From contig MU271214.1 of the NCBI GenBank assembly GCA_021432655.1, positions 1 to 58,467 of the forward strand: a stretch of 58,467 bases of DNA, read 5' to 3'. Both the position numbers and the translations under genes were made by a program. The notes under the pieces are model-generated. The model saw only the letters and a program-made list of their open reading frames with translations, had not been told where the DNA came from and did no database searches. The stretch is from Atractiella rhizophila. Taxonomy: Eukaryota. Shown here one piece after another: positions 17,912 through 39,753 of the stretch (the first letter of the stretch is position 1; each line of letters starts with the position of its first letter).

Positions 17912-19343
17912 ATGAGCACCACCCTGCCCTCTCCCTACCTCAAACCACACCTGTACTCCGACTCGGACTCATCTCTCTCCCACGACGCGTCTCTCTCCTT
18001 CCTCGGGGAACAAGACGCGCCGTCTCTCGCTAACGATTCCTTCAGTGGATCCGGGGTCGAAATTCAGAACCCAGTGGGAGAAGAGGTTGAGGTTGAGGGG
18101 AAGGGAAGGGCGGAGAGCGTGCGGGAGAGGTTAGAGCGGTTAGGAATCACCGGCAATGGTCATGAGGGTCAAAGAGGTATGAGAGGGAAAGGTGCAGGCG
18201 CGGGAAGGGAGTACGAGTATCATGGCTCGATGCGTCCCTTTGCTTCATCATCGACAGCTTCCACTTCTGCCTCTGATCAGCGACAACGACAACGTCAACG
18301 TCAAGGACAAGCATCTCCTTCTCCGCCTTCTACTCCCAAAGCGTCCCAATCTCATGCTAAAGCGCGAAGATCAACAGAGGAGGAAGCAGAGGATGGGGAA
18401 GAGGAGTACGATCCCACCGAACTCGAGGGAGACTCGGAGCGCGCCAAAAGGTTGAGGACGCTTAAAGCGGAGCGTGACGCTCTCAGGAAGCTCAACTTGG
18501 TGGTGGAGGGGTTGTTGGATGGATTTAGGACCTTGAAAGCGAACTTGGATGTGCGTCTTTTCTCCTCTCTCGTGAGGGTGAGGATATTGCAGGCTGGGCG
18601 TGCAACGCGACTTTGCTCTAGACGACGCGCATGCGTGAAGTGAGAAGAGCGAGATATTCTCTGCATGGGTTGTGCTGACTCTCGATGCATATCCAATGTC
18701 TATGTTGATACGTATACTGATACTTACTGAACACAGAACTTCCCACGTGCCATCCAAACTTCCCACGACCTCCTCGACCTCTACTCCACCCATCTCCGCT
18801 CATCAGGCCAGAATGTCGATCTGATAGAGAGCGGATGGGAAGGCACAGGTGCGGTAAGTCCTTACATCTATCCCATCTCTTCCTCTCTCCTTTCGCTCCT
18901 TCCCTTCACAAATTCAGATATATAAAGTTGACAAATCCACCGCGGCATAGGACGAACGCCTGGCGCGCGAGCAAGAGGAAGAGGCCATCCGGGAACGAGA
19001 GCGAGAGCGCGAACGCGAGCGGGAGAAGGAGCGAGAAAAAGAGCGGGAGAAGGACGAGGCGCGACGTCGCGCGGAGGAGTCAGCTTCCTCTTCCTCCTCC
19101 TCGCGCGCTCGCGGTCGCGGAACAAGAGGGGCACGCGCACCCGTTTTCTCTAGAGGCTCGAGGATATCCCCTCCTGGTAGCGTCGCGCACTCTAGTGTGG
19201 GTACTGGTGCGCGACAAGCTGGAGTGGGAACGGGGAGCACTGGTCCTGCAGTAAGGGGAACGGCTAGTGTGACTGGCGTTAGGGGACAGAGAGGCTTGAG
19301 GAGTAGAGTCGTCACGCGCCCACCGGGAGGGAGCGCGCGGTAG
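17912..19343 (+). CDS. DUO1: DASH/Dam1 kinetochore complex subunit Duo1 (3 exons)
   Basis: LKAERDALRKLNLVVEGLLDGFRTLKANLD/NFPRAIQTSHDLLDLYSTHLRSSGQNVDLIESGWEGTGA/DE matches the Duo1 core pattern, followed by an E/R coiled coil and a G/R/T-rich tail. Stop TAG at 19341-19343. Confidence 0.8.
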
Positions 19344-20289
19344 TGGCGCTGATGTTCTTATAGGGGAGGGCTAGATCGTTCTGATGTTGGCTGCATGTTG
19401 TCGTTTCAGTTTGCATAAAACGATTGTGAGGAATGTATTATGCTATTTAGATGCAATGCGTAGGTTACAAGGCAAAGTGTGAGAGTCGGTTTATGCCAAT
19501 GGAGAGGGCCAATTTACAATACGGAATGGCACTTGGCCTTATATGAAGATCATTGGAGGAGGAGTTGGAAGTTTGCTGACGAACAAAAGTTCGCCATGCC
19601 ATGTGCACTGCACTTGAGGACTTTCTTGACACCTTTGGGATCTCGACGTTGTGCCTCGAGAAATTCGATGTACGGGACAGTGAGTCTGCTCAACAACATA
19701 GGGTTTGTTCTCACAGGAGGACATTAAGGATGTGATTCCCAATGTTCATCAGTTTGAAAGTAGACGCTACAACTATCTTTCTCCCTGCACTATCAAGAGG
19801 AACTTGCCTTTGGCTCGCGTATCATTGCAACTTTGAATTCATTCTATGTTCATCGCTGCAACATTTACTTTTCTTTCCGTCCCACAAGCACAAGCGTAAA
19901 ATGTTGGTAGGTAGGAACGAAGTCAATTGCACAAACAACTCTTTCAATGAAAAACACGATTCTTCCAAACCAAAAGGGTCAGAGCTTTTCCTCGTACTCA
20001 CTAACGTAACAAGGAAAGTTGGCGTCGAGTACGTTCCTCAGCTCCCAAAGAGCTCCAGACTTTACCTCCTCCTTCCCGAGAGAAGGAAGAGGGCGTTCTA
20101 GCGCTTCTCTGAGAGTAAGACAACCGCCAGCAGCTTCATCATGCTTTTTTGATTTTGGAAGAATCGAATTTTTCAGATGATGATGCAAGCTTTTATAGGC
20201 ACACATCATCAACCCCCACAAAAATATGGGCGAAGGGTCAGCGCGCACCTTCAAAAGACAGAAACGAAAGTTAAAAACGCAAAAGGTGA

Positions 20290-20367
20290 TGACGAGAGTG
20301 GGATTCGAACCCACGCCCGAAGACTGCGGCCTTAACACAGCGCCTTAGACCACTCGGCCATCTCGCC
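20290..20367 (-). tRNA. tRNA-Leu (AAG)
   Basis: GGCGAGA-TGGCCGAGTGGTCTAAGGC-G-CTGTG TTAAGGC CGCAG-TCTTCGGGC-GTGGG TTCGAAT CCCAC-TCTCGTC-A folds as a cloverleaf with A and B boxes. A TTTT terminator follows. Confidence 0.97.
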
Positions 20368-20520
20368 ATTTGATGAAAGGTAGCCCCGCTCTTAGTTTGT
20401 TAACTTTGCGCAAGTCAATTGCAGCCCCCGCCTCTTCCAAAGCTGAGGTCGTCTACTCGAACCCCCGACCAAACGAAGGAGGGCAGCAAGGGGCAGGCGG
20501 GGATGGGGGAACGGGCAGAG

Positions 20521-20745
20521 GAAGGGGGAGGAGGGAGAGGAGGGAGAGGAGGGGAGAGGAGGGAGAGGAGGAGAGGAGGAGAGAGGGAGAGGAGGGAGAG
20601 GAGGGAGAGGAGGGAGAGGAGGGAGAGGAGGGAGAGGAGGGAGAGGAGGGAGAGGAGGGAGAGGAGGGAGAGGAGGGAGAGGAGGGAGAGGAGGGAGAGG
20701 AGGGAGAGGAGGGAGAGAGGAGAGGAGGGAGAGGAGGGAGAGGAT
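20521..20745 (+). repeat. Purine-only 9-bp tandem repeat (GAGGGAGAG)n
   Basis: Visible periodic array of ~220 nt, essentially only G and A on the + strand. Confidence 0.95.
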
Positions 20746-21025
20746 GAAGAGGAAGAGGGGATAGTGAATAAGAGCCCATTTTCAATGAGGTGGGTGCCTA
20801 AACTACTGTCATGAAGAAATGGTTGTTCTCCAACATGTCACATTTTACACGTTCTTTGTCACTGTGTGACGCTTTGTTTCATGTCATCTAACTGATGTTT
20901 GTGTACGTGTTGATATGACATTGATATCAAGATACCTTTCAATGAATTCCCACTTGTATTACGAGATCTAATGATGGTTTGACCAACCCTTCAATCAACA
21001 ACCAAACTACAAAGCTACAAAGTTG

Positions 21026-22242
21026 CTACAAGCAAGCCGAACCTCTCTCCTTGAACCATTGCCAACCTCCCCCGTGCCCAGAATTGTCAATCAACTCGAT
21101 AGGAACTTTCTCCAGTTCTTCTTGCATTTGCTTGGGGTTGGGATATTGGAGAAAGTGTTCAAAATCGATGAGTTTTATTCCAGGACGCTCAGACAAGACG
21201 ACAAAGTTATTTCGATTCACATCCCCATGTAATAGTCCCAATGCATGTAACTTCTTCAGAATCGCTTGACAAGCATCAAGATCTTCGATGGAAGCAGCAT
21301 GTCCCACCAATTTCTCCAACAGAAATCCAATAACACGACCGTCCTCGTGAATTGTCAGGTTTGCATCTTACGCAAATCGGCGCCCGTTCGCCGGATTGCG
21401 TCTCCTATCGTCCGTTTGCGTTCCCTGCGAATCGGCACCCGTTCGCCCATTTGCCCATTTGCACCTACATCACCACTTAGCCCAATTGTGCCTATCCTCC
21501 TCTTATTAACTCCGCATAATCCCACTGTCACTTCCCCTTTTAGTTCTCTTACATGTTTCATCTGCTCTCCTCTATGCTCTGTGGCAGTGTTATTCCGCTT
21601 GTATATATAGATCAGAGAGTAGTGGAGGTGATCTTAGAGTATCCTCTTAGGTTTATCTCTACTACAGGTTAGTCTTCATGTCATATCATGCACTTAGGTT
21701 TATCTCCACTACAGACGCATCGCCTATCGGCGACCGCACATAGTGTCAGCCCTAACATGAATATGTGCAATAAATCGTGGTATAAATTCGCAACCCTCCA
21801 ACAACTGATATGCTCGAGTTTCCTGCTCCACCTCAAGTATCTCCCATTCAAAATGAGCAAATTTCGCAATGTAGGTCGTTGAATCCAAGACAACTTTGGA
21901 AACCAATGTTGTAAGCTGCTTAACCCTTTTCAAGGAAATGCAATGAACCATTTTATGATGCCATGGGAGAATACCGGTGAGTTGCTTGTTCGATGTGACG
22001 ACGTTCAAATTCCTAGTGGATTGATCTCGTGAGATGTCCGCGATGTTCCATTCTTTGTCAATAGGAAGAGATGGCAGAGATTGAATCAGCCATGAAAGCA
22101 TCGCTCTGTCAAAGGTTCGAGGTTGAATTGTGAGATATTTGATTTTTTGTCCAATCTGGACGTGGTATTCACTGGCAATAGTTGGGTCTTCAACACCGTC
22201 GCCATCAATGTCCGTCGCCAAGATGGAGAGCTGATTATCCAT
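21026..22242 (-). pseudogene. Intronless protein-kinase-like (APH/RIO-like) gene interrupted by a solo LTR
   Basis: Motifs IAKFAHFEWEI..VEQETRAYQLL, GFLLEKLVG, LHALGLLHGDVNRNNF, IKLIDFE and SG.GGG. The ORF is split by the insertion at 21353-21757. Confidence 0.85.
21353..21757. mobile_element. Solo LTR (405 bp) of an LTR retrotransposon
   Basis: Termini TGTCAGG...CCTAACA (TG..CA, imperfect inverted repeat). 5-bp TSD TGAAT at 21348-21352 and 21758-21762. The empty site GTCCTCGTGAATATGTGC is seen in the paralog at ~22850. TATATATA at ~21602. Confidence 0.92.
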
Positions 22243-22531
22243 GACTGCCTTCTATACCACATATAAAATCAATTCAAAACCAAAATCAAAATGTCAAAGA
22301 AAAAAAAACTACTGTCATGAAGAAATGGTTGTTCTCCAACATGTCACATTTTACACGTTCTTTGTCACTGTGTGACGCTTTGTTTCATGTCACCTAACTG
22401 ATGTTTGTGTACGTGTTGATATGACGTTGATATCAAGATACCTTTCAATGAATTCCCACTTGTACTACGAGATCTAATGATGGTTTGACCAACCCTTCAA
22501 TCAACAACCAAACCACAAAGCTACAAAGTTG

Positions 22532-23328
22532 CTACAAGCAAGCCGAACCTCTCGCCTTGAACCATTGCCAACCTCCCCCGCGCCCCGAATTGTCGATCAA
22601 CTCGATAGGAACTTTCTCCAGTTCTTCTTGCATTTGCTTGGGGTTGGGATATTGGAGAAAGTGTTCAAAGTCGATGAGTTTTATTCCCCGACGCTCGGAC
22701 AAGACGACAAAGTTATTTCGATTCACATCCCCATGTAATAGTCCCAAAGCATGTAACTTCTTCAGAATCGCTTGACAAGCATCAAGATCTTCGATGGAAG
22801 CAGCATGTCCCACCAATTTCTCCAACAGAAATCCAATAACACAACCGTCCTCGTGAATATGTGCAATAAATTGTGGTATAAATTTGCAACCCTCCAACAA
22901 CTGATATGCTGCTTGAGTTTCCTGCTCCACCTGAGGTATCTCCCATTCAAAATGAGCAAATTTCGCAATGTAGGTCGTTGAATCCAAGACAACTTCGGAA
23001 ACCAATGTTGTAAGCTGCTTAACCCTTTTCAAGGAAATGCAATCAACCATTTTATGATGCCATGGGAGAATACCGGCGAGTTGCTTGTTCGATGTGACGA
23101 TGTTCAAATTCCCAGTGGATTGATCTCGTAAGATGTCCGCGATGTTCCATTCTTTGTCAATAGGAAGAGATGGCAGAGATTGAATCGGCCATGAAAGTGT
23201 CGCTCTGTCAAAGGTTCGAGGTTGAATTGTGAGATATTTGATTTTTTGTCCAATCTGGACGCGGTATTCACTGGCAATAGTTGGGTCGCCTCAATGTCCG
23301 TCGCCAAGATGGAGAGCTGATTATCCAT
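22532..23328 (-). pseudogene. Second copy of the kinase-like gene, frameshifted near the 5' end
   Basis: Relative to copy A there is a 12-bp and a 1-bp deletion at ~23286-23292 (GTTGGGTCGCCTCAATG vs GTTGGGTCTTCAACACCGTCGCCATCAATG). The downstream kinase frame 22532-23107 is open. Confidence 0.85.
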
Positions 23329-23619
23329 GACTGCCTTCTATACCACATATAAAATCAATTCAAAACCAAAATCAAAATGTCAAAGAAATCAATACCCGAG
23401 AATCTGAAGATGCTGGAGTACGATGGTCGCAGCTCAAAACAACACTACAAAGGCAGACTAAGACTAAATACTAAGATGACTGACCTTGCTTAAATCTTGG
23501 GCGTTTCCATGAATCAGAAGTTCATGCAACGTTCATGTCTTTGAATACTCGATAAAGGCACATTTACAGAAAATTTGGGCCAAAAGTTTGCTCAATGTGG
23601 GAGACCCAGTCAATATTGA

Positions 23620-26600
23620 CTGGAGTGGGCTTGGATTGTGGGACATGAGGCAGTCTCGTCAGTATTTGTTGTTGCTCATTGTAAGGATCTTGGGGTCAAT
23701 GTAAACATTGTAAAGCACGTAGCCACCAACGATGTCTTCCACTTCTACTCCTCCCTCACCCATTCACTCACCAGCCCTCCCCCGCTCGTCCACACTCTTC
23801 CCTCCTTCCGTTTCATAGAAGACAAAATTATCAAAGACCTTTTTCGTCTCTTAGACCTATCTTGAATCACATACCCGTCTTTCTCTCGTCTATTTCGCAT
23901 CGATCTTAAATTTGGACCAGCACATGCAACAGGCGATCCCTTGACTTGCAGGCCCGCGAATTGCGTGGAGTGACTGGAGGCGTGTTTGGAAGTGTGTTTG
24001 GGAAAGTCTTTGGACGAGATGTTGATTCGAAAAGAGGGGTGAGAGCGGTGGTAGTGGAACAGGAAGAGAAAAGATTATGTGTGTAGTTAATGAAGGGTAT
24101 TTGGAGGGATGGAGCATGGAGAAAGAGAGAAGGGAAAGTATGGTTATGGGTCATCCGTTGAAGAAACCAGTGGCAGAGTTTTCGATGAGGAATGTGGGTG
24201 TGCCAGAACAAGAAAGTCTTGCTGCACAAGTTATAGATGTTTCGTTTTCAAGGTTTGATTTTTTTCTCATTGATTTATTTCATCTCAGGAAATAATCAGC
24301 GATTTTTCTACAGTTCGAAACCGCTTGTATTCCTTGTCAAGTATCACCACCCCTCCGTAGCGCCTAACCTCCTCTCCTATCTCCTCCTCCTCGCCTCTCC
24401 AACCCTCAACTCATTCACTCCCCTCACTCTCACGTGCACACTCCTCCTCTCTCACACCTCCACTCCCCTCGTCTCGCGTCCACCCAAGCTCTACAAATCC
24501 GGCCCCTCTGCCTTCATTCTCTTCAGCTCTGCAGTCACATTTCTCAGTCTCTCTCTGGGCGTAGACTACGAAGAGGTTGTCTTATTGAAGAAGACTCCAC
24601 GTGGGATATTAGGCTGTGGACAAGGTGTGAAGACGACGAGTGAAGGATGGGGTGTGACGGTTGTGACGGGAAAAAGTGGGGTGTTGGAGATTAGCGTAAA
24701 TGATCAAGCTGCGAGAGGAGGAAGGAAGGGTATGAAGATGAGACAAGCGTTAGAAACGAGCGGTTTATTTTGGAGAGAGGGAAGAAAATCCGTTGGATTT
24801 TGGTGTTAGTGGAAGATGGACAGATGAGGTTGAAAGCCATGCAATGGCAATTAGTAAAGAGGTATTGATGAATAGTAAGTGGAATTGAATTCGAAGAGTG
24901 AGTGTGTTGATGAAATGGACTAGCGTCAAGTAGATTGTCAAAGGCGTTGGATATGAGAATTCAGTTGGCAGACAGGATACAGAAGTTAGAGAATTTGATC
25001 AAGTATATAAATGCAAATGGATTACTAGGAAAGGCGTGTTGTCTTTTTCTATGTGTATATGTCCATTGATGTAGGTTGTCGTGTATAGTTGTCTCAGAAT
25101 TGTAGAAGACTTTTGTGCACAAACGAGGAAAAGTTAATTGCTGCAAAGGCTCTTTGGGAGATGCAAAACGCGCGTCTTCTGTACGTCTCTCTTCCCCTCT
25201 CTATAACCTTCACCAACCCGCTCATTTGCAATACAAACAGATCCAACGAATCCGAAACTACAGTTTTTGATGAGGCAGGCTACATTTACCTTTCACGAAG
25301 CTCAGCTGTGCAGGAGGATGCGGTTCGACCGTTTTTTAGAGCACATGTAGGAGAGATTGGAAGTGTTTTGGAGAGAATTCCAGAGGTTTTGGGAATGAGA
25401 ACAGCTGATGGAATGGAGGAAAAATCTTTGACTGTCCATGAAGCAAATTTCGTAATCTCGGTTCGTATTTCATTTTTCTTTAGTTTTGAAATTGAATGAT
25501 TGATGAGATGGTTGGATAGACGGCGTATGATGCAGTATTCGAGAGTCGTTCGAGGTTGTACAAAACGTATGGCATTGAGACCTCCCACTCTTTTCTTAAA
25601 CCGTGGACATCATCCGGTTCACTCATCGACGTTATCAAGCATCTATTCGAAACGACAGACACTGCTCTCCTTTCGCACCAGCGCGAGTTTGGCGCTTCTT
25701 CGATTGATGATGATGTGTTTATGGGGGATTTGAGCTTTGGAGAAATTAAGGAAGACCCAAGGAGGTTTCAGAGACATTTGAGAACGCAGATGAGGGCCTT
25801 GGCGGATACGTATTGTGCATTGTGCGAGGAAAGATTGGTTTATTTGAGAACGTGGGTTCTGTTTGGCTTTGATGGATGGGAGAGAGAGAACTGATGATGT
25901 GGCGTGGTAGACTTGAGACGGCAGAAGCACCAATTATGGCGAAGGCATTGTCGGATCGTTATATCACCACACGGCCAATCATGCTTAAAGCGCTCAGTAC
26001 GTCCTACTCCCATTTATGAACTCAACCCGCTGACATTTACCGATAGTACGACTTTCGTCCTACGACGACGCATTGGAGCTGGCACAGAAGTATCGAGACT
26101 ATAGAATACTAGTGGAACTGTGCACGCATCCGACGTATGGAGGGAAGAGAAGGATTGAGGAGATGATTGCAAGGTTTGCAGAGAAATTTGCATTTCAGTT
26201 GTATCAGTATTACATCGAGAAAGGTAGGCGGTGTTTTGTGAAAGGGAGAAGCGGTGTTGACTTTGTGGGCGATGATGGTGTAGGAGAGGTTAGGAATTTG
26301 TTGGAGCAAGATCAAGAGTATAATCAGATATTACTCAAGTTTTTGGAAAGCACGGATAATCCTAGTACGTCCTTTTTGTCGTCGTCGTGCGGGTGATAGT
26401 TGATAAGAAATATGAAGAACTTGCGTGGATTCATGAGATCTTGCTCTCACGACACGCTCATGCATATAATGAGCTGGTGCGGGAAGCATGTCAAGAGAAA
26501 AACGTGGATGAGCACAAAGTTTGTCAATTCTCTATCGCCCACAAACTTCAAGCTAAATCTCGCGCATTAGTCGATGCTCAGTATTGCAAAGTTATGCAGG

Positions 26601-27660
26601 ATTGCAGAACTCTCCACACCTGATTTCAACATCAAGGAAATTCAACTAGGTTAGGGTTGACTCTTGTGTATGTGAAGGGCATTGAATTGACGGCAGAGAG
26701 CAGTGGATCAATTGCTCGATGTAATGAAATCACATGAACGCATACGAGAGTTAATCCAACGGGTCGCGGATCAACAAGATGCTGCAACACGCAATCGACC
26801 GGAACGGCTGAAGCTTGCAGTGCTAGAAATCCTTGATGCACGGCTGACGAACTACTTTGGATATCCGTCGGTGAGTTCTTTACGAGATGTGTGGTTCGAC
26901 GTGCGTTGGCTGAATTGAATGGTTTTAGTTGTTTAATCATATCATCACGGAAATCATGCAACATCATACGGTGTCAGGAGAGGACATTATTGATGCATTT
27001 ACATTGATGGAGAGCCCTGATCTCGATGATCCTGATTTTTGTCATGCCCTGGGTATCCTTGATAAAATCCAGGTGAGTATCACATGAGTCGGATGGAGAT
27101 AGGCGATGATCATTTAACTATCTTTGAATTGAACAGGCTGACCTTCCTACTGCACGAGCCGAATTCGCTCTGAAAACAATTTGGCGACGCCTTTACATTG
27201 CAGGTAATGTGTAAGTCGCTTACTCCTCTTCCAGATATTTCGGCCGGCCCCTAATCACGCTCCAATGTCCTGATTCGTTTGCAATACAAATTCTAGTTGG
27301 TCATCGCTTCGCAATAGGACCATATCCGACGATCAGGTTGAGACTGTACTACGAACAACACCTCTGGCTCTGACTCTCGTTCAGATCCAAGAAATTGGTG
27401 CAAACCCGGAATGCCCCCAACAAGGAAAGGAACGAACAACCGCCGCAAGGCCCAACAAAAAACCCAAATTGGGACCAAGAGAGTGTCTTTTTGACGTTGA
27501 GACGGAGCGGAAAGCGCTGGAAGCACGATTTGTGCATTTACCAAAGGAGATGGTGAATGCGTTGCTTGAGGATTATGAACGCGAGAGTCAAATATTAGAG
27601 GAGGAGCTGGACAGTGGGCTTGAAAATTTTGTGGACGAGATCATTCGTTTGCAATCATAA
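23620..27660 (+). pseudogene. NUP133: Nucleoporin Nup133; C-terminal half appears intact, N-terminal propeller region truncated and frameshifted
   Basis: Spliced motifs AVYFG..ENPLDF, LENLIKYINANGLLGK, EKLIAAKALW, KPWTSS, ELAQKYRDYRILVELC, FAFQLYQYYIEKG, LAWIHEI and MLSIAKL. Frame breaks at ~24055 and ~24756, a stop at 23863-23865, and no clear start codon. Confidence 0.75.
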
Positions 27661-27976
27661 TTATTGTTTTAGCACTGTACTTTTGAGCCTTGCAGACATG
27701 TCTTGATCCGAAAATTTAACGTAGTACTAAGTATCCAAGTTTCCTTTGATAGTGTACAATGGAACGTAGGACGAAGACGAAGGGATAAAGAGAAAATCAC
27801 GACTTTTGATGCTACAGGAATATAAAATCTGTCCAAGTTAAACCTATGAGCAATTTTCAAGCGGTCCAAATGTCAAAAAAAGAAATAAACAGATAAAGCA
27901 CGACTAAAATATTCTAATTCACAAAATTATGATGCGACATATCCAGGAGGTCCAACAGATATGAGGTTCAAAAACG

Positions 27977-29005
27977 TTAGTTACTCACAACAGTCCAACA
28001 ACTTCCGCGCCTAGCACGCTCTGTCAATTCTTTTGGCTTCCTTGACCCCTCGTCACTTGAACTCCACAGTATCTGTGCTTGCTCACACCATTGAAAATGC
28101 TCCAAAAGCCCATCCCGCGTATACTCCTTCTGGCGAGCCTCCTGTGCCCAGTCTTCACCCCTTCTGCCAATGATACTCTTATCGATCGCCAATTCGCAGC
28201 CAGAGCACAACAGTCCACATTCGACTTGTTCAGTTCGTTTATCGTAGTAAGGAAGTGCACAGGCACCCATAAAGTTGAATTTTTTGTCGTGGTTTGACCT
28301 TCCAATTATAAATGACGGTGCGTTCGATGAAATCAAAGCGGCCTGTTGGACAGATGCAATTGCGATGCGCCGGTTGCTCGTCACCAAGTCATCCCAAAGA
28401 TATTTTCCTGGCAAACTCTTGAATGATTTGAGTTGTCTAGTTTGAGCCTTGGTTAGGTCGAATGCCTTTTGGAGCCTTGTGAGGGATAACATTTGAATTT
28501 CTGGAGCTTTCCGCATACATTTAAAACAGCATCGTTTCCAAGTTAGGAGAGAGACATAGGCCCCGAAAGCGCCACAAATACCGCAATTCTTGGTGCATAA
28601 CAGATCGTAAAAGTCCCATAGTGTGACATCGAAGGCAATCCCAGTTCGCAGGGAGGCGCACAAAAGATCCAATCCGTGTAAGACAACGACGCGAAACTGC
28701 TTCAGAGATTGAATTATTTGTCGAAACTTGAGATTGAGTTGCCGAATGGCAAAGATTGAACGTATATCGAGATACGTTAAAATTTTAATGACGAGCTCGA
28801 GGGGAATCCGACCGAGAACACCAAAGCCGACACGAGAGAGGCGGGGGAACGCTGTGGAAATGGATTGAGACACGTTGGTGTGTTCAGTTCGAGAGAACGA
28901 GATGACGGAGTGACGATAGTCAATGTAGGAGATGGTTCGGACGATGAGGTTCCTATGCTCTTCTGCAAATTTAAAAGGTGTGTCTGAGCGATATTTCGAA
29001 GACAT
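27977..29005 (-). CDS. Intronless F-box protein with a Cys-rich C-terminal region
   Basis: F-box FGVLGRIPLELVIKILTYLDIRSIFAIRQLN; CGICGAFGAY.SLLTWKRCCFKC; CSGC; LEHFQWCEQAQ. The start is probably ATG 29005 (MSSKY). Confidence 0.85.
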   Translation of the reverse strand: MSSKYRSDTPFKFAEEHRNLIVRTISYIDYRHSVISFSRTEHTNVSQSISTAFPRLSRVGFGVLGRIPLELVIKILTYLDIRSIFAIRQLNLKFRQIIQSLKQFRVVVLHGLDLLCASLRTGIAFDVTLWDFYDLLCTKNCGICGAFGAYVSLLTWKRCCFKCMRKAPEIQMLSLTRLQKAFDLTKAQTRQLKSFKSLPGKYLWDDLVTSNRRIAIASVQQAALISSNAPSFIIGRSNHDKKFNFMGACALPYYDKRTEQVECGLLCSGCELAIDKSIIGRRGEDWAQEARQKEYTRDGLLEHFQWCEQAQILWSSSDEGSRKPKELTERARRGSCWTVVSN

Positions 29006-29812
29006 ATCCACGTCCCTGAGAATGTATGTGGTGAGTGCCGGGAAATGTGAACTTTGGGAGTGAGTTACCAATTTCATTGTTCTCAAATTTAACCGCTTGA
29101 CGCGTTTTCGAAATGCCGTACTCTTTCGAAAAACCTAGTCGCCCTTCGAGAGTTACCAAATCTTCCTTGACCAAGGAAGCGAAAGAAGCTTATGGTGGTT
29201 CCTCACAGTTGAAATTTTGTTGAAACGTTGAAATTTCGAAGGGCAATGCCTTATCGCTTCGGATTGTCTCCTGCACTGGATTCCAACACTCTGTCAGATC
29301 GTCAGTTGGTAAGACAATTCTCCGCAAAGCTTCCGAGACACCAGAAAGTCCTAAAAGACAACCTGCCTCTGAAGTAACATATACTAACATGTGCATGGCA
29401 ACTTGAATGCATGGCGCGGAAAGCATGTTTCTCAACATTTCAGAGATGAAAACATTGCATTGGTGTGCAAGATTCTTGAGTGTTCAGCATATCTCGCACA
29501 GTTCTATCCTGCATCGTCTGCTCACTGAGGAAAGAACTCACTGTGCATCCATCAACCAATATCCCTCAAAGACTCGGACTTTTTCGCCCTGATATCCTTT
29601 TTATGCCCGTCTGAAGTACTCTAGCCTGACAGGAGGACTCGTTGATTAGCCCGAAGGTATCGTCGTCGTTTGCAGTCCCTGCCGAACTTCGACGCGTCCA
29701 AAAAAATCAACCACCACCAACCCAGCAACAGCGAAGTCCTCGTCCACACTTCTCTCATCACCTTCTTTCTCCGCCATCCCTCCCATACCCCCCAGAATCC
29801 CCTTTCACCGAC

Positions 29813-31246
29813 ATGGCTGCCGACACACGGAAACCGAGCTCCCTTGCGAGCACCTCAGCGGACCCTTTGCCGCCACATTCTCCCCATGTTAGCCCAGAGC
29901 TGTCTCTCTCCTTCCTTGGCGAACAAGACGCGCCGTCTCTCGCTAACGATTCCTTCAGTGGATCTGGAGTCGAAATTCAGAATCCAGTGGGAGAAGAGGT
30001 TGAGGTTGAGGGGAAGGGAAGGGCGGAGAGCGTGCGGGAGAGGTTGGAGAGGTTGGGTATCACCGGCAACGGCCATGAGGGTCAAAGAGGTATGAGAGGG
30101 AAAGCAGCAGGTGCGGGAAGGGAGTACGAGTATCATGGCTCGATGCGTCCCTTTGCTTCATCATCGACAGCTTCCACTTCTGCCTCTGATCAGCGACAAC
30201 GACAGCGTCAACGTCAAGGACAAGCATCTCCTTCACCACCTTCGACTCCCAAAGCGTCCCAATCTCATGTTAAAGCGCGAAGATCAACAGAGGAGGAAGC
30301 AGAGGATGGGGAAGAGGAGTACGACCCCGTCGAGCTCGAGGGAGACTCGGAGCGCGCCAAAAGGTTGAGGACGCTTAAAGCGGAGCGTGACGCTCTCAGG
30401 AAGCTTAACTTCGTGGTGGAGGGGTTGGTGGATGGATTTAGGACCTTGAAAGCGAACTTGGATGTGCGTAGTTTCTCTTCTCTTTTGAGCATATTGCAGG
30501 CGGGGCGTGCGGCACGATTTTGTTCTAGACGACGCGCATGCGTAAAGTAAGAAGAGCGAGATATTGTCTGCATGGGTTGTGTTGAATCTCGATGCATATT
30601 CAATGTCCTATGTGATACATATACTGATCCTGAATACAGAACTTCCCACGTGCCATCCAAACGTCCCACGACCTCCTCGACCTCTACTCCACCCATCTCC
30701 GCTCATCAGGCCAGAATGCCGATCTGATAGAGAGCGGATGGGAAGGCACAGGTGCCGTAAGTCCTTCCATCTATCCCATCTCTTCCTCTCTCCTTTCGCT
30801 CCTTCCCTTCACAAATTCAGATATATAAAGTTGACAAATCCACCGCGGCATAGGACGAACGCCTGGCGCGAGAGCAAGAAGAAGAAGCCATCCGGGAACG
30901 AGACCGAGAGCGCGAACGCGAGCGGGAGAAGGAGCGAGAAAAAGAGCGAGAGAAGGACGAGGCGCGACGTCGCGCGGAGGAGTCAGCTTCCTCTTCCTCC
31001 TCCTCGCGCGCTCGCGGTCGCGGAACAAGAGGGGCACGCGCACCCGTTTTCTCTAGAGGCTCGAGGATATCCCCGCCTGGCAGCGTCGCCCACTCTAGTG
31101 TGGGTACTGGTGCACGACAAGCTGGGGTCGGAACGGGGAGCACTGGTCCTGCAGTCAGGGGAACGGCTAGTGTGACCGGCGTTAGGGGACAGAGAGGGTT
31201 GAGGAGTAGAGTCGTCACGAGGCCACCAGGAGGGAGCTCGAGGTAG
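29813..31246 (+). CDS. Chimeric gene: first 30 codons of the mitochondrial carrier fused in frame to Duo1
   Basis: Reads MAADTRKPSSLASTSADPLPPHSPHVSPEL|SLSFLGEQDAP... Duo1 exon/intron structure is retained and the frame is open to TAG at 31244-31246. Confidence 0.85.
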
Positions 31247-32143
31247 TGACACTAATGTTCTTATAGAGGAGGGCTAGATGGTTCTGAGGTTGTCTGCATG
31301 TTGTCGTTTTCAGTTTGCATAAAACGGATGTGAGGAATGTATTTGCTATTTGCGATGCATAGGTTACAAGGCAAAGTGTGAGAGTTGGTTTATGCCATTG
31401 GAAAGGGCCTGTGAATGACTGGGAGTGGAGTTGGAAGTGACTGACGAACAAAAGTGCATCGAGGACTTTTTAAGACCTTTGGGATCCCTACGTTACGCCT
31501 TTCCAATTCGATGTAACGGGACAGTGAGTCTGCTCAGTAACGCAGACTTTGTTCTCACACGACGACACTGAGGGTGTGAATCCCAATGTTCGTCAGTTTG
31601 GAAGTGGACGCTACCACCTTTCTCCCTGCACTAATATGAGGAACTTGCCTTTTGCTCGCATATCATGCAACTTTGAGTTCATTCTCTGTTCACCACGGCA
31701 ACATCTTACTTTTCGTTCTGTCCCACAAGCACAAGCGTAAAATGTTGATAGGTAGGAACGAAGTCAATTGCACAAACAACTCTCTCAATGAAACAACACG
31801 ATAACACGATTCTTCCAAACCAAAAGGGTCAGAGCTTTTCCTCGTACTCACTAACGTAACAAGGAAAGTTGGCGTAGAGTACGTTCCTCAGCTCCAAAAG
31901 AGCTCCAGACTTTACCTCCTCCTTCCCGAGAGAAGGAAGAGGGCGTTCTAGCGCTTCTTTGAGTGTAAGACAACCGCCAGCAGCTTCATCATGCTTTTTT
32001 GATTTTGGAAGAATCGAATTTTTCAGATGATGATGATGCTGCTTTTATAGGCAGACATCATCAACCCCCACAAAAATATGGGCGAAGCGTCGGCGAGCAG
32101 CTTCAAAAGACAAGAAGCGAAAGGTAAAAAGGGCAAAAGGTGA

Positions 32144-32221
32144 TGACGAGAGTGGGATGCGAACCCACGCCCGAAGACTGCGGCCTTAACACAGCGCCTT
32201 AGACCACTCGGCCATCTCGCC
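32144..32221 (-). tRNA. tRNA-Leu(AAG) duplicate with mutated T-loop (probable pseudogene)
   Basis: Identical to 20290-20367 except GTTCGAATCC changed to GTTCGCATCC (invariant A58 of the B box). Confidence 0.85.
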
Positions 32222-32873
32222 ATTTGATGAAAGACTCCCTCGCTCTTAGTTTCTTAGAGTTGCTAACGTCAAATAAAGCTTTTCTGAGAGACCCTTCCCT
32301 TCATCCTCTTGGATGTCTGGCCTGGATTCCAACACTCAGTCAGGTCGCCATTTGGTAAGACAATTCTCCGCCAAGCTTACACATATTGTACCTAGACATC
32401 AGAAAGTCCTGCAGGACAACCTGCCTCTTAAGTAGCATATAGTGATATGTGTATGGCAACTTGAATGCATGGCACGGAAAGCATGTCTCTCTCAACATTT
32501 CAGGCTGAAAACATTGCATTGGCGTGCAAGATTATTGAGTGTTCAGCATATCTCGCACAGTTCTATCCTGCATCCTCTGCTCACTGAGGAAAGAACTCAC
32601 TGTGCATCCATCAACCGATATCACCTCAAAGACTCGGACTTTTTCGCCCTGACATCCTTTTTATGCCCGTCTGAAGTACTGTAGCCTGATAGGAGGACTC
32701 TTGATTTAGCCCGGAGGTATCGTCGTCGTTTACAGTCCCCTGCCGAACTTCGACGCGTCCAAAAAAATCAACCACCACCAACCCAGCAACAGCGAACTCC
32801 TCCTCCACACTTCTCTCATCACCTTCTTTCTCCGCCATCCCTCCCATACCACCCAGACCCTTCTTTTCCCGAC

Positions 32874-34777
32874 ATGGCTGCTGACACGCGGAAACCGAGC
32901 TCCCTTGCGAGCACCTCAGCGGACCCTTTGCCGCCACATTCTCCCCATGTTAGCCCAGAGCTGAGGAACGATTTGATCGCTGGTTGGCTTGGTGGAGCAC
33001 TGGGTATCTTATTAAGCAATCCGTTTGAGGTGCTGAAAGTGAGGTATGTGGTTGGACTCGTGGCCGTGAGAGCGAGGAGAATGCATTCTTGAAGAAGACT
33101 GGGGCAGAGTTTTTTGACGTTGGATGGGGAACTGCTTGGGTTTATCCCATTTTGTCCCCACGTAAATCATGTAAAAAGACAAAGAGCGCTTCCTAAGCGG
33201 TGCTGATTTCAAGTTGCGCGAAGTTGAGGGAACACTTCCACATCGCTTTCATTGGTTCATTCTTTCCGCGAAGAGGCGTGTTTTAACATGCGAACTGTCT
33301 ACATGCTTCTTTCATACTAGAAGAATGGAAGGTTATGGAGATCTTGCCCCCTCTCTGGGTTCTGATTCCTTTGATGACTGTACCACATTATAGCTCAGTG
33401 GTGCTGTCGCTATCTCCATTCCTTCCAACGCAGTGTGTTACTCACTTTCCCTGGGAGCCTTTGGACATTTGCAACGAAGAATTAATGGACTGGACTCGGA
33501 TGTCGATGGTGGCACTTTCTAAAGTGGGCTGGTATAACTTGATTTCTATGCTCTGCCCCATCTTCAGAAACCACGCCACGATTGAAACCTCGCAATTGTC
33601 TCATTCGTAGTTGGCGTTCTTCGAATGACGCTGCTCTTTGTCCATTTTGACGAATAAACCTACGTTTGACCGTCCCATCTTCTTGCGATGCGTAGATTGA
33701 AGTCACTCCCTTTCTCTAATGCAAAACATTTTCACATGGTCGTCTGGCCTTCGATGTAACAGTCACGGATGTACGTGTTGCATCTACCGCCTCTTTTACG
33801 CCTGACGAAGTCTCTTGGTTTCGAATTGTTCCTGACTGCTGCCAAACAGACTCCAAACTCTGCAAACACTGAACCCATCGCATCCCCCTTCCACTCGCGT
33901 GGGGGCACCTTCAACTCATCCTCGTCCACGACCCTCGGCGTCATCTTGTGCGCCTTCTCTCCCTTCAACGTCCACATCCGTCGTTGCTGGCCTCCGCTCC
34001 CTGTGGCGAACGGATGGATACCGTTTCCTCTATGCTGGCGCGGCCGGTCCTATCCTTGGACTAGCACTAATCGACAGCGCCTTCTTTGGCATCTACGGTT
34101 TAGGGATGTGAGTTGAGCTCCTTCTCAATTGGAAGTGAAGTTGACGAATCGAGGTGACAAGGAAGGCGATGAACCAAGATCGGGAGGAGCCGAATCATTT
34201 GGGCGGCGTCGTACTAGCCGGTGCGAATGCAGGAGGCATTTGCGCTCTCCTTCAGACTCCGGTGAGGGTGAATTTCACATTTTCAGATGAGAGCTTAGGG
34301 TATGACTGGGGTAGATTGAAGTCGTGAAGTGCAGGGCACAAGCAGAGGAGAGTAGACATGTGTCCAATGGAGAGTTGCAGGATCGGAAGAAGCTTGGAAG
34401 CTTGGGAATTGCTAGAACCATCATCCGAGGGGAAGGGATACGAGGTTCGTGTCTCATCCTGCCCATTCGCGATTATACCTACCGGTTGAACAGGCTTTTA
34501 CATTGGCGGTTTGATGACGATATCGCGAGATGCCGTCAGTTCTGGCATCTTTTTTGGCGCTTGTGAGCTTCCTACATTGGAAAAGCCATGAAAGGCTGAT
34601 AACGGCTATCGGATAGATCACTACTTTAGACGAGTGCTTCCCTCTCCAGAATCCCCATCCCCCTTGGTTGCTTCCAGCAAACCGACATGGCTGCTGACAC
34701 GCGGAAACCGAGCTCCCTTGCGAGCACCTCAGCGGACCCTTTGCCGCCACATTCTCCCCATGTTAGCCCAGAGCTGA
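32874..34777 (+). pseudogene. SLC25 mitochondrial carrier copy A, lacking the third carrier repeat
   Basis: Has repeats 1-2 (NPFEVLKVRLQ, TPIEVVKCRAQ). At 34680 it runs into copy B out of frame (VASSKPTWLL...) and stops at TGA 34775-34777. Confidence 0.85.
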
Positions 34778-36873
34778 GGAACGATTTGATCGCTGGTTGG
34801 CTTGGTGGGGCACTGGGTATCTTATTAAGCAATCCGTTTGAGGTGCTGAAAGTGAGGTATGTGGTTGACTCGTGGTCGTGAGAGTGCATGGTGCAAGAAG
34901 ACTGGGGTAGAGCTTTTTGCTTTGAATGGGGAAATGCTTGGGTTTATCCCATTTCGTCCCCATATAGATCATATAGAAAGACTTAGAGCGGATGCTGTTT
35001 TCATGTTGGGCGACGATGGGAGAACACTTCCACTTCGCTGTCATGGCGCATTCTTATGGTGAAGAGGCATGTTTTAACCCAATCATGGCATGCGAACTGT
35101 CTCCAATGCCTCTTTCAGACTCGAGAATGGAAGGTTGTGGAGATCTCGCCCTCTCTGGGTTCGAGATTCCTTCTGTGACTGTCACACATTTTGCGCTCCC
35201 TCGTTCATTCGTGGTGCTTCGCTATCTCCGTTCATCCAGCGTAGTGTTTTACTCACTTTATCTGGGAGCCCTGGGAGCCTTTGGACATTGGCAACGAAGA
35301 ATTAATGGACTGGACTCTGATGTCGATGGTGGCACTTTCTAAAGTGGACCATACCATTGCGCCACTATCAGCCCTTCAGAAGCCACACCATGGTTTGAAT
35401 CCTCACGACTGTCTGAATCGTAGTTGGTGCCATTGTTCTCCGATTGACCTTGCGTTTCGTCCATGTCGACGTAAACCTAAGTTTGTCCGTCCCATCTTCC
35501 TACGATGCGTAGATTGAAGTCACTCCCTTTCTCTAATGCAAAAAATTTTCACATGGTCGTCTGGCCTTCAACGCAACAGTCACGGATGTATGGGTTCCGT
35601 TTACCGCCCCTTCTACACCTGTTCTTTTTATACGAAGTCTCTTGGTTTCGAACTGTTCCTGACTGCTGTCAAACAGACTCCAAACTTTGCAAACACTGAA
35701 CCCATCCCATCCCCCTTCGACTCGCGTCGGCGCACCTTCAACTCATCCCCGTCCACGACCGTCTTCTTCGTCGTGTGCGCCTTCTCTCCCTTCAACATCC
35801 ACATCCGTCGTTGCTGGCCTCCGCTCCCTATGGCGAACGGATGGATACCGTTTCCTCTACGCTGGCGCGGCCGGTCCTATCCTTGGACTAGCGCTAATTG
35901 ACAGCGCGTTCTTTGGTATCTACGGTTTAGGGATGTGAGTTGACCTCCTTCTGAACTGGAAAGTGAAGTTGACGAATCGGGGTGACAAGGAAGGCGATGA
36001 ACCAGGATCGGGAGGAGCCGAATCATTTGGGGGGCGTCGTACTGGCCGGTGCGAATGCAGGAGGCATTTGCGCTCTCCTTCAGACTCCGGTGAGGGTGAA
36101 ATTCACATTTCCAGATGAGAGCTTAGGTATGAATGGGGTAGATTGAAGTCGTGAAGTGCAGGGCACAAGCAGAGGAGAGTAGACATGTGTCCAATGGAGA
36201 GTTGCAGGATCGGAAGAAGCTTGGAAGCTTGGGAATTGCTAGAACCATCATCCGGGGAGAAGGGATACGAGGTCGGTGTCTCGTCTTGCCCATTCGCTAT
36301 TATACCTACCGGTGTAACAGGTTTTTACATTGGCGGTTTGATGACGATATCGCGAGATGCCGTCAGTTCTGGCATCTTTTTTGGCGCTTGTGAGCTTCCT
36401 ACATTGGAAGGGCCATGAAAGGCTTCTAATGGCTTTCGGATAGATCACTACTTTAGACGAGTGCTTCCCTCTCCTGAATCCCCGTCCCCATTGGTTGCTT
36501 CCAGCAAGATTCTCCTCTCTGGTGGACTAGCTGGCGCGATTTCAGCACTTATACCCTATCCGTTTGTTGTTCCTTCCATTCTCTCGAACAAACGATTCAC
36601 AACCACAACAGCATAGATATAATCAAGACCCGCCTACAAGTCACGAAAGTTTCGCTCTCTCCAGCCGTTCCTACCTCCGCAGAGACCCTCTCTCTTCCCC
36701 CACCGCAACCTTCTGTGCGTCAAATTGCACGCCAGATCTATAGAGAAGGTTTGGCGGAAGGAGCAGGTTATATGGCTTTCCTACGAGGCCTGAAACCCAC
36801 TCTAGTGAGCGCTTTTGTGGGTAGCGCGGTAACGATTGGCGTCTTCGAGGCGGCGGTTAAAGCACTGGAGTAA
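34687..36873 (+). CDS. SLC25 mitochondrial carrier (carnitine/ornithine/amino-acid-carrier-like), full length
   Basis: Three Px[DE]xx[KR]x[RK] signatures: PFEVLKVRLQ, PIEVVKCRAQ and PIDIIKTRLQ. Also EGIRGFYIG..TISRD and AFLRGLKPTL. First intron 34857-35676; stop TAA at 36871-36873. Substrate class is tentative. Confidence 0.92.
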
Positions 36874-37476
36874 TGTAGATGGAGAGGTGCAGGAACGGCG
36901 CCATTGCTGCTTGGTTGACTATTTATTCTCAAAATGTTGATAATTTAGGTCTGTTCATCATGAAACCACATCCATTAATCTGCTCATCATTAACTTTCTT
37001 GCAAGAAAGACTCAGGCAATCCAAATGGTGGTATCATACCAGACTTGCTTGCACGACAACATAGGTTTTCGCCATTGACGGCGTGTAAGTAAAGGAGGCC
37101 CCTCGAAGAACTGCCAAGGGTATCCTCTAAGCCTCCATTGATAATTAGCATTGACGCGAGAAAAAGAATCATTTAAAAACACTATCTAAGCCACTGACTC
37201 ATGAGTGCATGAAACGACTTCGTCATTCGTCGAGTCCGTCCTTTGCCTTGCCTTTGCGCTCAACCTGCGCCTCCATCGATCTCCATTCCCAACAACATTT
37301 GCTTCCAGAAGCTTGACCCTGACTGGGCAAGTGGGTCGTTGGTTGGGAGCAGTTCGACGGGTTATAATTCCGTCCGCACCACTGATCAAAGGAGATGTGT
37401 CCATAAATCGACTTGCTCTCTTTCAAGTTGCTTGAAGTACCCTTAGACAATTTATGCTGCAGTGAAATTGTCATTG

Positions 37477-39753
37477 ATGTCCCTGCCAAACCCTCAGATA
37501 CCCAGCAGGATCTCGCTCCTTGTACCACCAGCAACGATCGCGCATCATGGGACACTGCTGTTCATTGGAGAGGTTGAAGGAACAAAAGGAACTTGGTGGG
37601 GCGTAGAGTGGGATGATGTCGATCGCGGGAAACATTCTGGGGAGAAAGATGGGAAGAAATACTTTGAAACTAGGTATGATCATTGGACTGTGGCGAGGCT
37701 TGGATATCTGCACTAGAATGTAGACATTATCAATGCTCAAACAAGTGGAATTACGTAGAGCAGGCCTCCCATCCTACATACAAGACGAAACATTCGCGAT
37801 GTGGACCCTCTATCAACATTCTTGCAGAATGGTCCCATATTGTTCGCAGATTTACTCTGAACTGTTTTGACGGTCCTACAATATCAATGATACTTCAATC
37901 TAAAATCACAACGCGTCCACTTTCTCACTACGTTGTGGATACTCAGCGTAGTCTCCAAACTGCTTTGGATCATGTCCAATGACACGGTCAGAACAGCACA
38001 CTGAAGATATGTGGGTGAATGAGTGATCAATAGCACCAAACTTGAATCTCCTTTGATAGAAAGGAAGATGGCATCAAACAGCTTAGAGGCACTTGAATGT
38101 CTGTTGTACATGGGTGGAACACGCTCAGGCATCTGAGCGAAAGACCCATCCATCAACTTGGCCCGTCAGACCCTTGCTTACTGCTCCACAGGCTGCCACA
38201 TTCGGCTACTTTCATCCGTCCACCTATCACCTTCGATCCACCAGCTTCGGTCCTCTCTTCTCCACCGACCAAGCCGTCCATCTCCCTCGGACAGAGCTTC
38301 CTCTCTGCAATCCGCTTAAAATATCTCACTTCCATCCCGCTGGCAGATTCCTACGCTCTGAATCCTGAAGTCGGAAGGGAATTGGAGCTGGTGGGCATGG
38401 AGAAGATTGCGAAGAAGTTTGGAGATATGAAGAAGTTACGTACGATAGGGCTGGAGGAGGAAGGCGTATATGGTTGGGACGAGAAGGAAGAGGGAACTTT
38501 AGACAGTCTACAGAAAGTCGACTTGAGTCGCACTCTTTTGGCTCGTTGGGAAGACGTCATGGATATTGTGAGGAGGCTGCCGAAGTTGGACGAGCTGGCA
38601 CTGAAGTATGTTTATGTGTTCATGGCGGCAGCAAGCTTACGAGGGATCAGCTCGAACCGCTTCGCTGTTCTTGACACTCCACTGCGAGTAGAGATCTTCC
38701 GAAACCTCAGAGTTTTGCAGCTGAACAAAACTGCCATCTCTGCACAAGAGGTTCGGCATTTTCCCCAGCCAATGCATCAACCGCCGCTCAAAAGTCAGCG
38801 TAGATTTTTTACCTCCATAGTTCGCTACCCCTCCTTGAAGATCTACAGGCGGGGTATAACGGCATCACCTCTCTCCTTCCATTATGCGAGGAGGGGATAT
38901 TTCCTTCAATGAGATCTTTAAATATTGAAGGCAATGCTATCACTTCATGGGAAGAGGTTGTGGTGTCACTCGGACGCCTCCCACTGTGTGTTTCATCTGC
39001 ATCTATTGTCACTCCGTACTGACAGTGGCGAATAGTCTAGAACGCCTCATCTTATCATTCAATCCCATATCTTCGATCAACTTCGGCCCGCCAACTGACT
39101 CTGCTTCTCCTCTCCCGTTCTCCAATCTCAAAACACTCGCTCTCAACGACTGTCCGCTAACGATGTGGTCATCCATCGACGCACTTGCTTCCATCAGTTC
39201 CTTGCGAAATCTCTCGCTTGGTCACTCCGCATTACCCGAAGCAAGTGATCGCGACTTTCGTGCCTTCGTCATCGCTCGTCTGCCTTCACTGAACTCCTTG
39301 GACCATAGTACAATATCACCACGAGAGAGACGAGACTCGGAGATCTTTTATCTGGGTCGAATAGAACAGGAACTTGCGCATGGATCCACCCAAGTGGAAG
39401 AGAGACATCCTCTTTTCAAGTCACTAGTGGAAACATACGGTTTGTCGGACAAAAGCGACGCACCGAAGAAAGATGGAATAAAGTCGAAACTCTTAGACCT
39501 CACCCTGATCACACCAAGAGGAGAACGTATACCTCTCAGCTTGGTACCCACTACTCCCGTCAGGCTTCTGAGGATGAGAGTGGCAAAGCTGCTAAAGAGC
39601 CCCATACCAAAAAATAAAGGTTGGAAGCTAGTAGCTATGCTCAGAGCTCAGGGCGGAGAGGAGGTTATCAAGAGCGTCATGGAAGATGAAGCGAGGGAAA
39701 TAACTTGGTATGGTGTAGAAGGAGGGGAAGAGTTATTGATTGTAAAAGAATGA
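37477..39753 (+). CDS. TBCE: Tubulin-specific chaperone E (CAP-Gly + LRR + UBL)
   Basis: CAP-Gly GTLLFIGEVEGTKGTWWGVEWDDVDRGKHSG..DGKKYF. An intron at 37674-38191 joins TR/LPHSATFIR. LRRs (VDLSRTLL, LILSFNPI), R.FVIARLPSL..LD..ISPRERRDSEIFYL, and a C-terminal UBL ending WYGVEGG. Confidence 0.93.

Follow-up and report, generated by a model that had tools for sequence, protein, structure and literature searches.

A chimeric Duo1 reading frame and two proposed, diverged versions of a Duo1-carrier locus in an Atractiella rhizophila assembly

The stretch of DNA analysed here, called the window in the following, comprises 58,467 nucleotides of Atractiella rhizophila (assembly GCA_021432655.1, contig MU271214.1, positions 1 to 58,467). 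It carries a predicted gene for Duo1, a subunit of the DASH/Dam1 kinetochore complex, a tRNA-Leu gene and a gene for a mitochondrial carrier. As assembled, it also holds a second copy of Duo1, whose promoter and N-terminus are those of the carrier. Here, we describe this chimeric gene and its surroundings. We consider it rather probable that the joins which created the chimera are younger than the divergence of the joined sequences, and that the data provide no evidence that the chimera itself has been under selection.

Layout of the locus and of the chimeric gene

The chimera belongs to a unit of Duo1 body, tRNA, and carrier promoter with 30 codons. A first-pass annotation had described this unit as duplicated head to tail, and self-comparison bears this out for the sequence as assembled. 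Direct matches pair 17979-19510 with 29893-31409 (93.3% identity), 19609-20402 with 31455-32256 (89.5%), and 29276-29902 with 32322-32963 (91.3%), and the Duo1-body part at 17990-20425 was found again at 29903-32279 by self-comparison as well as by a repeat finder. Copy 1 of the unit, which we call alpha, spans 17990..29902 on the plus strand and comprises the Duo1 body, the tRNA, a segment of approximately 8.8 kb (20427..29255), the carrier promoter and 30 codons. This segment occurs in copy 1 only and had escaped the first-pass annotation. A further direct pair, which the first-pass annotation had likewise missed, follows right behind the unit; in it, the carrier is doubled head to tail (32869-34680 and 34682-36507). 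The second version of the locus forms one contiguous block of 4.8 kb, the beta block (29903..34680, plus strand), with Duo1 from codon 27, the tRNA, a beta-type promoter, and the carrier from exon 1 to the middle of exon 6.

The two tRNA-Leu(AAG) genes (20288..20368 and 32142..32222, both on the minus strand) differ at 1 of 81 positions. The carrier promoter and 5' untranslated region (5'UTR) are present in two types on the plus strand: the alpha type (29276..29812) stands upstream of the chimera, the beta type (32322..32873) upstream of the first carrier copy. A short piece at 29807..29902 (plus strand), consisting of the last promoter base, five more nucleotides, the ATG and 30 codons, recurs at 32869-32963 and at 34681-34776. 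The first occurrence differs from the second, which is identical to the third, at 29821 and 29827, both synonymously. Base 34681 is an A, as is the corresponding alpha-type base 29807, and unlike the C of the beta type at 32868. A 96-nt piece is found on both sides of the beta block (29807-29902 and 34681-34776). If the beta block is cut out, an undisturbed locus results, in the order parental Duo1, tRNA, the 8.8 kb with APH-like genes and an F-box gene, promoter, and carrier.

The parental Duo1 gene (17912..19343, plus strand; exons 17912-18550, 18737-18853 and 18951-19343) encodes 382 amino acids. Exon pieces of both Duo1 copies were scanned separately against 24,736 Pfam models, where the cut-off for DASH_Duo1 (PF08651) is 25.4 bits. 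Three of the four pieces match DASH_Duo1 and no other family, each below this cut-off: the end of parental exon 1 (15.6 bits, profile positions 2-30, E 0.015), the end of chimera exon 1 (15.3 bits, again 2-30, E 0.018), and chimera exon 2 (13.0 bits, 34-68, E 0.096). Parental exon 2 gave no Pfam match. Across a phase-0 intron, the pieces match in colinear order, and their scores add up to roughly 28.3 bits, which would exceed the cut-off. It would be very unlikely for chance matches to fall in the right order, in two separate pieces, on one model of 24,736. The likeness to the known Duo1 of the DASH/Dam1 complex (PF08651; solved chain 6cfz_D) lies in the match of the exon-1 end and exon 2 to consecutive parts of the profile, and the DASH_Duo1 region is present in both versions in the window. 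The differences are the sub-threshold score of each piece, the unmatched parental exon 2, and the value for 6cfz_D, which came last of 12 rows with a non-significant E of 3.2.

Searches for recognisable Duo1 relatives in other fungi or in solved structures yielded none. There were 0 relatives of Duo1 exon 1 among 1.84 billion representative proteins, and for Duo1 residues 165-213 none of 8 candidates scored as a relative. A further protein search returned a single match out of 1984 candidates, which is the carrier protein P0001 and not Duo1. The protein collections searched contain the neighbouring carrier, but neither a parental nor a chimeric Duo1 of this organism was found in them. In public records, the gene seems either to lack annotation or to have a very different model. 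For the exon 1 shared by both copies, 597 pattern matches were obtained in metagenome contigs, and 0 were confirmed as relatives; thus, they provide neither an outgroup nor a control locus.

The chimeric open reading frame (ORF; 29813..31246, plus strand; exons 29813-30463, 30640-30756 and 30854-31246) has 386 codons for amino acids, namely carrier codons 1-30 followed by Duo1 codons 27-382. Around the junction at 29902/29903, the parental Duo1 reads ...CACGACGCG/TCTCTC, the carrier ...GAGCTG/AGGAAC, and the chimera ...GAGCTG/TCTCTC. The join falls on a codon boundary (30/31 in the chimera, 26/27 in the parent). These letters and the gene model confirm that the carrier start with promoter, ATG and 30 codons is in frame with Duo1 codon 27, and the junction alignment agrees with the reported sharing of only about 1 nt, a G common to both parents. 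As assembled, the head-to-tail copies thus carry a novel in-frame junction of two genes. The gene model is also in agreement with the claim that both Duo1 introns and an open frame to the stop are kept in the chimera. Its introns measure 176 and 97 nt, those of the parent 186 and 97 nt, and all four have GT..AG ends. An origin of the chimera as a retro-copy was ruled out, since the introns are kept. The junction, taken as a 28-mer, had 0 matches in metagenome contigs.

Of the carrier, the chimera holds residues 1-30, which is all that precedes the first repeat, as matched by Mito_carr from residue 31 on. The three Mito_carr repeats of a mitochondrial carrier (PF00153) are not found in it. From its sequence, the product would be a Duo1 with an exchanged, S/P-rich N-terminal tail and not a carrier. 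With 3 acidic and 2 basic residues, this tail would appear unlike a mitochondrial presequence in composition.

Besides the Duo1 unit, we observe four head-to-tail direct duplications within the 58-kb window. These are 3380-7491 and 7491-14122 (approximately 96% identical, with an internal difference of 2.9 kb versus 0.4 kb), 20800-22302 and 22306-23388 (approximately 97%), the carrier pair mentioned above (90%), and 53943-55525 and 55527-57110 (99.9%). Their junctions are blunt, share 1 nt, or carry one extra A. Such an accumulation points either to a duplication-prone genome or to a systematic effect of the assembly.

Divergence of the copies and the question of selection

In their 356 shared codons, the Duo1 copies show 48 differences. 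Most of them (38) are synonymous, in line with the first-pass annotation, to which many had appeared so, and 10 are non-synonymous, which gives a synonymous divergence (dS) of 0.156, a non-synonymous divergence (dN) of 0.013, and a dN/dS of 0.08. Identity reaches 95.4% in the shared part of exon 1, 97.4% in exon 2 and 95.2% in exon 3; among the noncoding parts, it is 85.2% in intron 1, 99% in intron 2 and 83.8% in the 3' flank. Had one copy drifted since the split, approximately 62 non-synonymous changes would be expected, compared to the 10 seen. All 10 replacements are conservative; as the protein searches gave no Duo1 relative, they cannot be placed on branches. Taken alone, the dN/dS and the divergence of introns and flanks support the purifying selection suggested by the first-pass annotation. 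Repeat-induced point mutation was rejected as the source of the differences, with transitions making up 103 of 193 mismatches in the Duo1 pair and 89 of 171 in the carrier pair.

The carrier pair serves as a comparison. Carrier copy 1 (32874..34680, plus strand) keeps exons 1-5 whole and exon 6 intact for 62 nt, and is cut at 34680; beyond ...LVASSK, 31 out-of-frame codons follow and then a stop. Carrier copy 2 (34687..36873, plus strand) is full length, with 368 amino acids, 7 exons and 3 Mito_carr repeats (E 1.5e-44). Its exons at 34687-36870 are 100% identical to P0001, recorded as "mitochondrial carrier [Atractiella rhizophila]". Upstream of its ATG, copy 2 retains only 6 nt of sequence of its own. 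As assembled, the promoter therefore precedes the truncated copy and the full-length copy is without one, a state in which a gene so constrained is unlikely to remain for long. All six exon pieces of the truncated copy are open. Over 262 codons, the two copies exhibit 27 synonymous differences and 1 non-synonymous one (dS 0.144, dN/dS 0.012), where approximately 42 non-synonymous changes would be expected with one copy dead from the split onward (Poisson P 3e-17). The dS of the carrier pair is uneven, with 0.02 in exon 1 (1 difference in 171 nt), 0.29 in exon 2, and 0.07 and 0 in exons 4-5, a mosaic such as recombination or gene conversion would be expected to give. Intron 1 of the carrier measures approximately 810-820 nt, which is long for a fungus.

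The neutral distance is alike in both pairs, not only in dS but also in intron 1 (85% identity for Duo1, 84% for the carrier). A carrier copy that was dead from birth could not have stayed so conserved, and the divergence would therefore be older than the joins; it does not have the pattern of changes accumulated after the duplication. Because the truncated carrier copy is likewise conserved, the low dN/dS belongs to the two sequence versions as such and not to the joined genes. If the joins are younger than the divergence, the open frame and the low dN/dS of the chimera were inherited and are silent on its own function. Thus, the dN/dS between the Duo1 copies is low, but this value does not show selection on the chimera, and the purifying selection suggested since its birth is not borne out in view of a truncated carrier copy with similar dS and a dN/dS of 0.012.

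An old duplication could be saved if splicing mixed exons of the two carrier copies, so that both sets were in regular use, which we regard as unlikely. We find it quite improbable that all of the following apply together: a real junction, a second Duo1 expressed from the bidirectional promoter, a genome prone to repeated head-to-tail duplications that fuse genes, of which 58 kb would hold five with junctions that are blunt or share 1 nt, and duplicated carrier exons that are used via alternative splicing.

The first-pass annotation corresponds most closely to an old tandem duplication of 17990-29902, followed by the loss of 8.8 kb from copy 2. The result would be a functional chimeric Duo1 paralogue, driven by a bidirectional promoter of the carrier and the F-box gene and carrying the 30-residue N-terminal tail of the carrier, with both Duo1 genes kept by selection. 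The intact ORF with both introns and splice sites argues for such a history, as do the dN/dS of 0.08, the 10 non-synonymous changes in place of approximately 62 under drift, and their conservative nature. The junction resembles end-joining, there are no Ns in the window, the carrier part taken ends before the first repeat, and the whole DASH_Duo1 region is kept. These points are opposed by the stronger "selection" signature in the truncated carrier copy, which is of the same age and expected to be dead, by the loss of the promoter from the full carrier copy, and by the lack of any Duo1 protein of this organism in the collections searched. To our knowledge, subunits of complexes with fixed stoichiometry are seldom kept in duplicate, which we also count against it. 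Altogether, we regard an old, selected paralogue as unlikely.

Contigs from public sequencing runs and the origin of the beta block

Four public sequencing runs were available in the form of contigs, from which presence can be told and absence cannot; all results refer to the contigs listed. Two runs, X1 and X2, stem from one sample, possibly of DNA. The contigs of a third run, X3, are without introns and are therefore RNA-derived.

Sequence specific for the chimera copy is found in X1/X2 with 0 differences, both for a piece of intron 1 (30531-30693) and for the 3' flank (31168-31778). The link from the tRNA to the beta-type promoter is likewise present in X1/X2, with 0 differences over 32204-32320 and a contig that continues onward. 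Letters and intron sequence of the parental type occur in X1/X2 as well; 28 of the 37 listed differing letters that were checked (rows from 30004 on) equal the parental copy of the window. Since beta-specific and parental-type sequence are both found in X1/X2, both versions are real DNA. The presence of chimera-copy-specific sequence is also what an old paralogue would predict.

The arrangement around the junction is different in these contigs. The alpha and beta promoter types differ at 11 sites across 29677-29902. Record 10 of X2 (317 nt) covers this stretch with 4 other letters and then runs for 91 nt into carrier sequence, and X1 has the same loose end. In X3, a contig from 29808-29902 continues for 80 nt into the carrier, and a 77-nt contig represents the alpha-type 5'UTR (29761-29837, with 2 other letters among 9 type-specific sites). 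An alpha-type promoter that is joined to the carrier thus exists and is expressed, and this arrangement is absent from the window. The promoter type that precedes the chimera is active, as its 5'UTR is transcribed in X3 records 16 and 17 (29575-29837); this observation favours an expressed old paralogue, too. The Duo1 mRNA contig of X3 (record 19) continues for 67 nt into the parental 5' sequence. Parental Duo1 is therefore expressed and spliced as modelled. In addition, the spliced X3 contig exactly skips 30464-30639 and 30757-30853, which confirms both Duo1 introns. With the alpha-type promoter linked to the carrier and the Duo1 body linked to the parental 5' end, the contigs speak against an old paralogue.

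Neither a contig that bridges 29902/29903 nor a chimera transcript was seen among the contigs listed, and contigs cannot show the absence of either. In X2 and X3, non-bridging contigs among those listed already make up the whole depth of the bin 29820-29934 (182.4 and 486.6, respectively), which is no evidence of absence. Depths of beta-specific contigs (69.7, 90.6 and 110.7 in X1; 103.2, 125.4 and 145.2 in X2) and of the contig from the F-box gene and promoter (174.5 in X1, 231.7 in X2) are contig depths and do not give copy number. The former amount to approximately half the F-box depth, and the summed Duo1 depth is close to it, which is suggestive but was not used as evidence. The same applies to six sites in the clusters 30205-30270 and 31075-31129, where parental and chimera-type letters occur at broadly similar depth.

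How the beta block came to stand in its place, we infer as follows. Alpha and beta would be two versions of one Duo1-tRNA-Leu-carrier locus, each of which evolved within intact, working genes. They could be paralogous loci, or else haplotypes of a heterozygous strain that differ strongly from each other. The complete alpha locus would be interrupted by the beta block at 29903-34680, the joins at 29902/29903 and 34680/34681 having formed after the versions diverged. A single insertion between the 96-nt repeats fits the layout, where the alternative would call for an 8.8-kb deletion in addition to two duplications with breakpoints separated by 95 nt. The alpha-type base at 34681 also speaks for this reading, and so do the public contigs at two further positions: at 29014 and at 29742, all X1/X2 contigs over the site have a letter other than that of the window, and at 29742 the same holds for X3. 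The chimera may consequently be absent from the DNA of the organism, as an assembly error, or may be a very recent rearrangement.

Tentatively, and with considerable reserve, we favour an assembly error of the "heterotype" false duplication kind, in which a beta contig was put between two alpha contigs that truly overlap by 96 nt. In this case, there would be no chimera, and the organism would have two ordinary genes, or alleles, of Duo1.

Several observations weigh against such an error, or against the contigs as a test of it. The window contains no N, so that the gap expected of a false duplication is missing. The junction unites unrelated sequences at positions which are not repeat ends, and an overlap-based assembler would need reads for such a join. 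It looks like end-joining with 1 nt shared, similar to the junctions at 7491, 34680/A and 55525/A. The other head-to-tail pairs have other identities (97%, 99.9%), as expected of real duplications that differ in age. The 96-nt pieces on the two sides of the beta block differ at 2 synonymous sites, yet both would be "alpha" under the simplest picture of contig overlap. The beta version is without 8.8 kb that hold several genes. Furthermore, contigs drop variants and may be mosaics where variant bubbles were merged. Letters absent from both window copies occur in the runs (A at 30004, T at 30024, G at 30890), and chimera-type letters at 30880/30886 are paired with the parental-type letter at 30904, a combination that neither window copy has. 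Even X1 and X2, although from one sample, differ at 29077 and 29129. The sample behind the public runs is thus polymorphic and no clean replicate of the assembly. The genome data were called unpublished in one paper (PMC13347111), and we found no paper on the assembly of this genome or on a Duo1 duplication in the literature.

Alternatively, a real and recent rearrangement between already diverged versions, probably heterozygous, would leave a newborn chimera that selection has not yet acted upon. We rate this as possible but doubtful. In such a polymorphic, heterozygous fungus, unequal end-joining of homologues or the capture of a fragment would have put beta behind alpha. The copies would already have been approximately 15% apart at neutral sites when the chimera was born, and the chimera would probably reside on one haplotype only, with no time for selection. 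A young structural variant of this kind, which we count within our core claim that the joins are younger than the divergence, accounts for the low dN/dS in all pieces including the truncated one, for the equal dS, for the junctions that resemble end-joining, and for the lack of Ns. It also explains why the ancestral arrangement, with the alpha-type promoter leading into the carrier, is found beside beta-specific contigs. On the other hand, it requires two illegitimate exchanges within 5 kb, and several more in 58 kb if the other pairs are alike. It would leave the carrier broken on that haplotype, and the flanking 96-nt copies differ at 2 sites.

Neighbouring genes and comparison with known systems

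In the alpha-only segment we find a GA-rich 9-nt repeat, an APH-like kinase in two tandem copies (20800-23388), the F-box gene, and a weak signal that resembles a nucleoporin. The repeat, a purine-rich and imperfect stretch of 277 nt (GGAGGGAGA-like units; 20477-20753), is located at the left edge of the segment. Copy a of the APH-like kinase has 410 nt more (21348-21757) than copy b. A short ATTCA repeat stands on either side of this extra stretch, whose ends are not clean GT..AG ones. Copy b has an ORF of 252 aa (22535-23290, minus strand), which copy a carries in split form. At 26034-26393, a weak partial match to Nucleoporin_C (E 5.9e-4, profile positions 306-360 of 672) may represent a gene fragment or a very divergent gene. 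A scan of 19 plus-strand ORFs in 23513-27657 gave no other match at E <= 0.01, and isolated, unrelated ones at E 0.014-0.32.

The F-box gene (27977..29605, minus strand; PF00646, E 2.3e-6) is of interest for the promoter. X3 record 15 skips three small introns at its 5' end (29014-29067, 29132-29204, and 29276-29541, the last with CT..AC ends). Its first exon (approximately 29542-29605) lies within the region that is duplicated as the carrier promoter. Since the 5' exons reach into this region, the promoter is bidirectional. The beta-type promoter copy keeps an orphan F-box first exon (approximately 32588-32650). An edge of the 8.8-kb difference at the F-box intron border (29275/29276) was considered and rejected: by eye, weak similarity continues for approximately 20 nt, and the edge does not lie at the splice site.

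Further downstream, the window contains genes for a protein with CAP-Gly and leucine-rich repeat domains (37447-39750), a striatin-like WD40 protein (47166-49900, minus strand), and a family-X DNA polymerase with lambda fingers and beta palm and thumb (50633-51992, minus strand). These housekeeping genes are an ordinary core-genome context. Two stretches with ORFs (40959-41841 and 57576-58464) match each other inversely at 77% identity and look like a diverged pair of paralogues in opposite orientation.

The consequences depend on whether the junction is real. If it is real and expressed, it would provide a clean, datable new subunit variant of an essential kinetochore complex of fixed stoichiometry, obtained by a swap of promoter and N-terminus; in this fungus, tandem duplications might then also arise unusually often. 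Without a real junction, serial haplotypes of a very polymorphic fungus mimic young paralogues under purifying selection, and the low dN/dS of adjacent copies says nothing on the function of a fused gene. The truncated but conserved carrier copy is the internal control that exposes this mimicry.

Chimeric genes that arose from tandem duplication have been described in Drosophila yakuba and D. simulans (PMC4069613). The window resembles them in the head-to-tail arrangement with breakpoints in two genes of the same orientation, in the promoter and 5' coding part that are in frame with the body of another gene, and in the parents that are whole at the outer ends. The differences are that the copies in the window are approximately 15% apart at neutral sites, that a neighbouring copy which should be dead is equally conserved, and that the case is known here from assembled sequence.

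The second known situation is that of false heterotype duplications, where divergent haplotypes are kept as adjacent copies; the examples of Ko et al. (2022) include exons inserted into another gene (PMC9516828). There, false duplications are recognised by half depth, by gaps in the sequence or in read depth, by discordant pairs and by single-copy k-mers, and false duplicates are most often separated by gaps. Of these marks, that of single-copy k-mers is clearly seen here, as copy-specific sequence of both copies is present in X1/X2, while a gap is not. The window agrees with the described cases in its adjacent copies, which differ as haplotypes do and each have sequence of their own, in genes that stand beside themselves or exons of one gene that are inserted in another, and in a position at the borders of similar and dissimilar haplotype stretches. 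It differs from them by the lack of an assembly gap and by the very high haplotype divergence that would be implied (dS approximately 0.15). In both cases, the structure falls under a kind already known, be it that of chimeric genes born of tandem duplication or that of heterotype false duplications.

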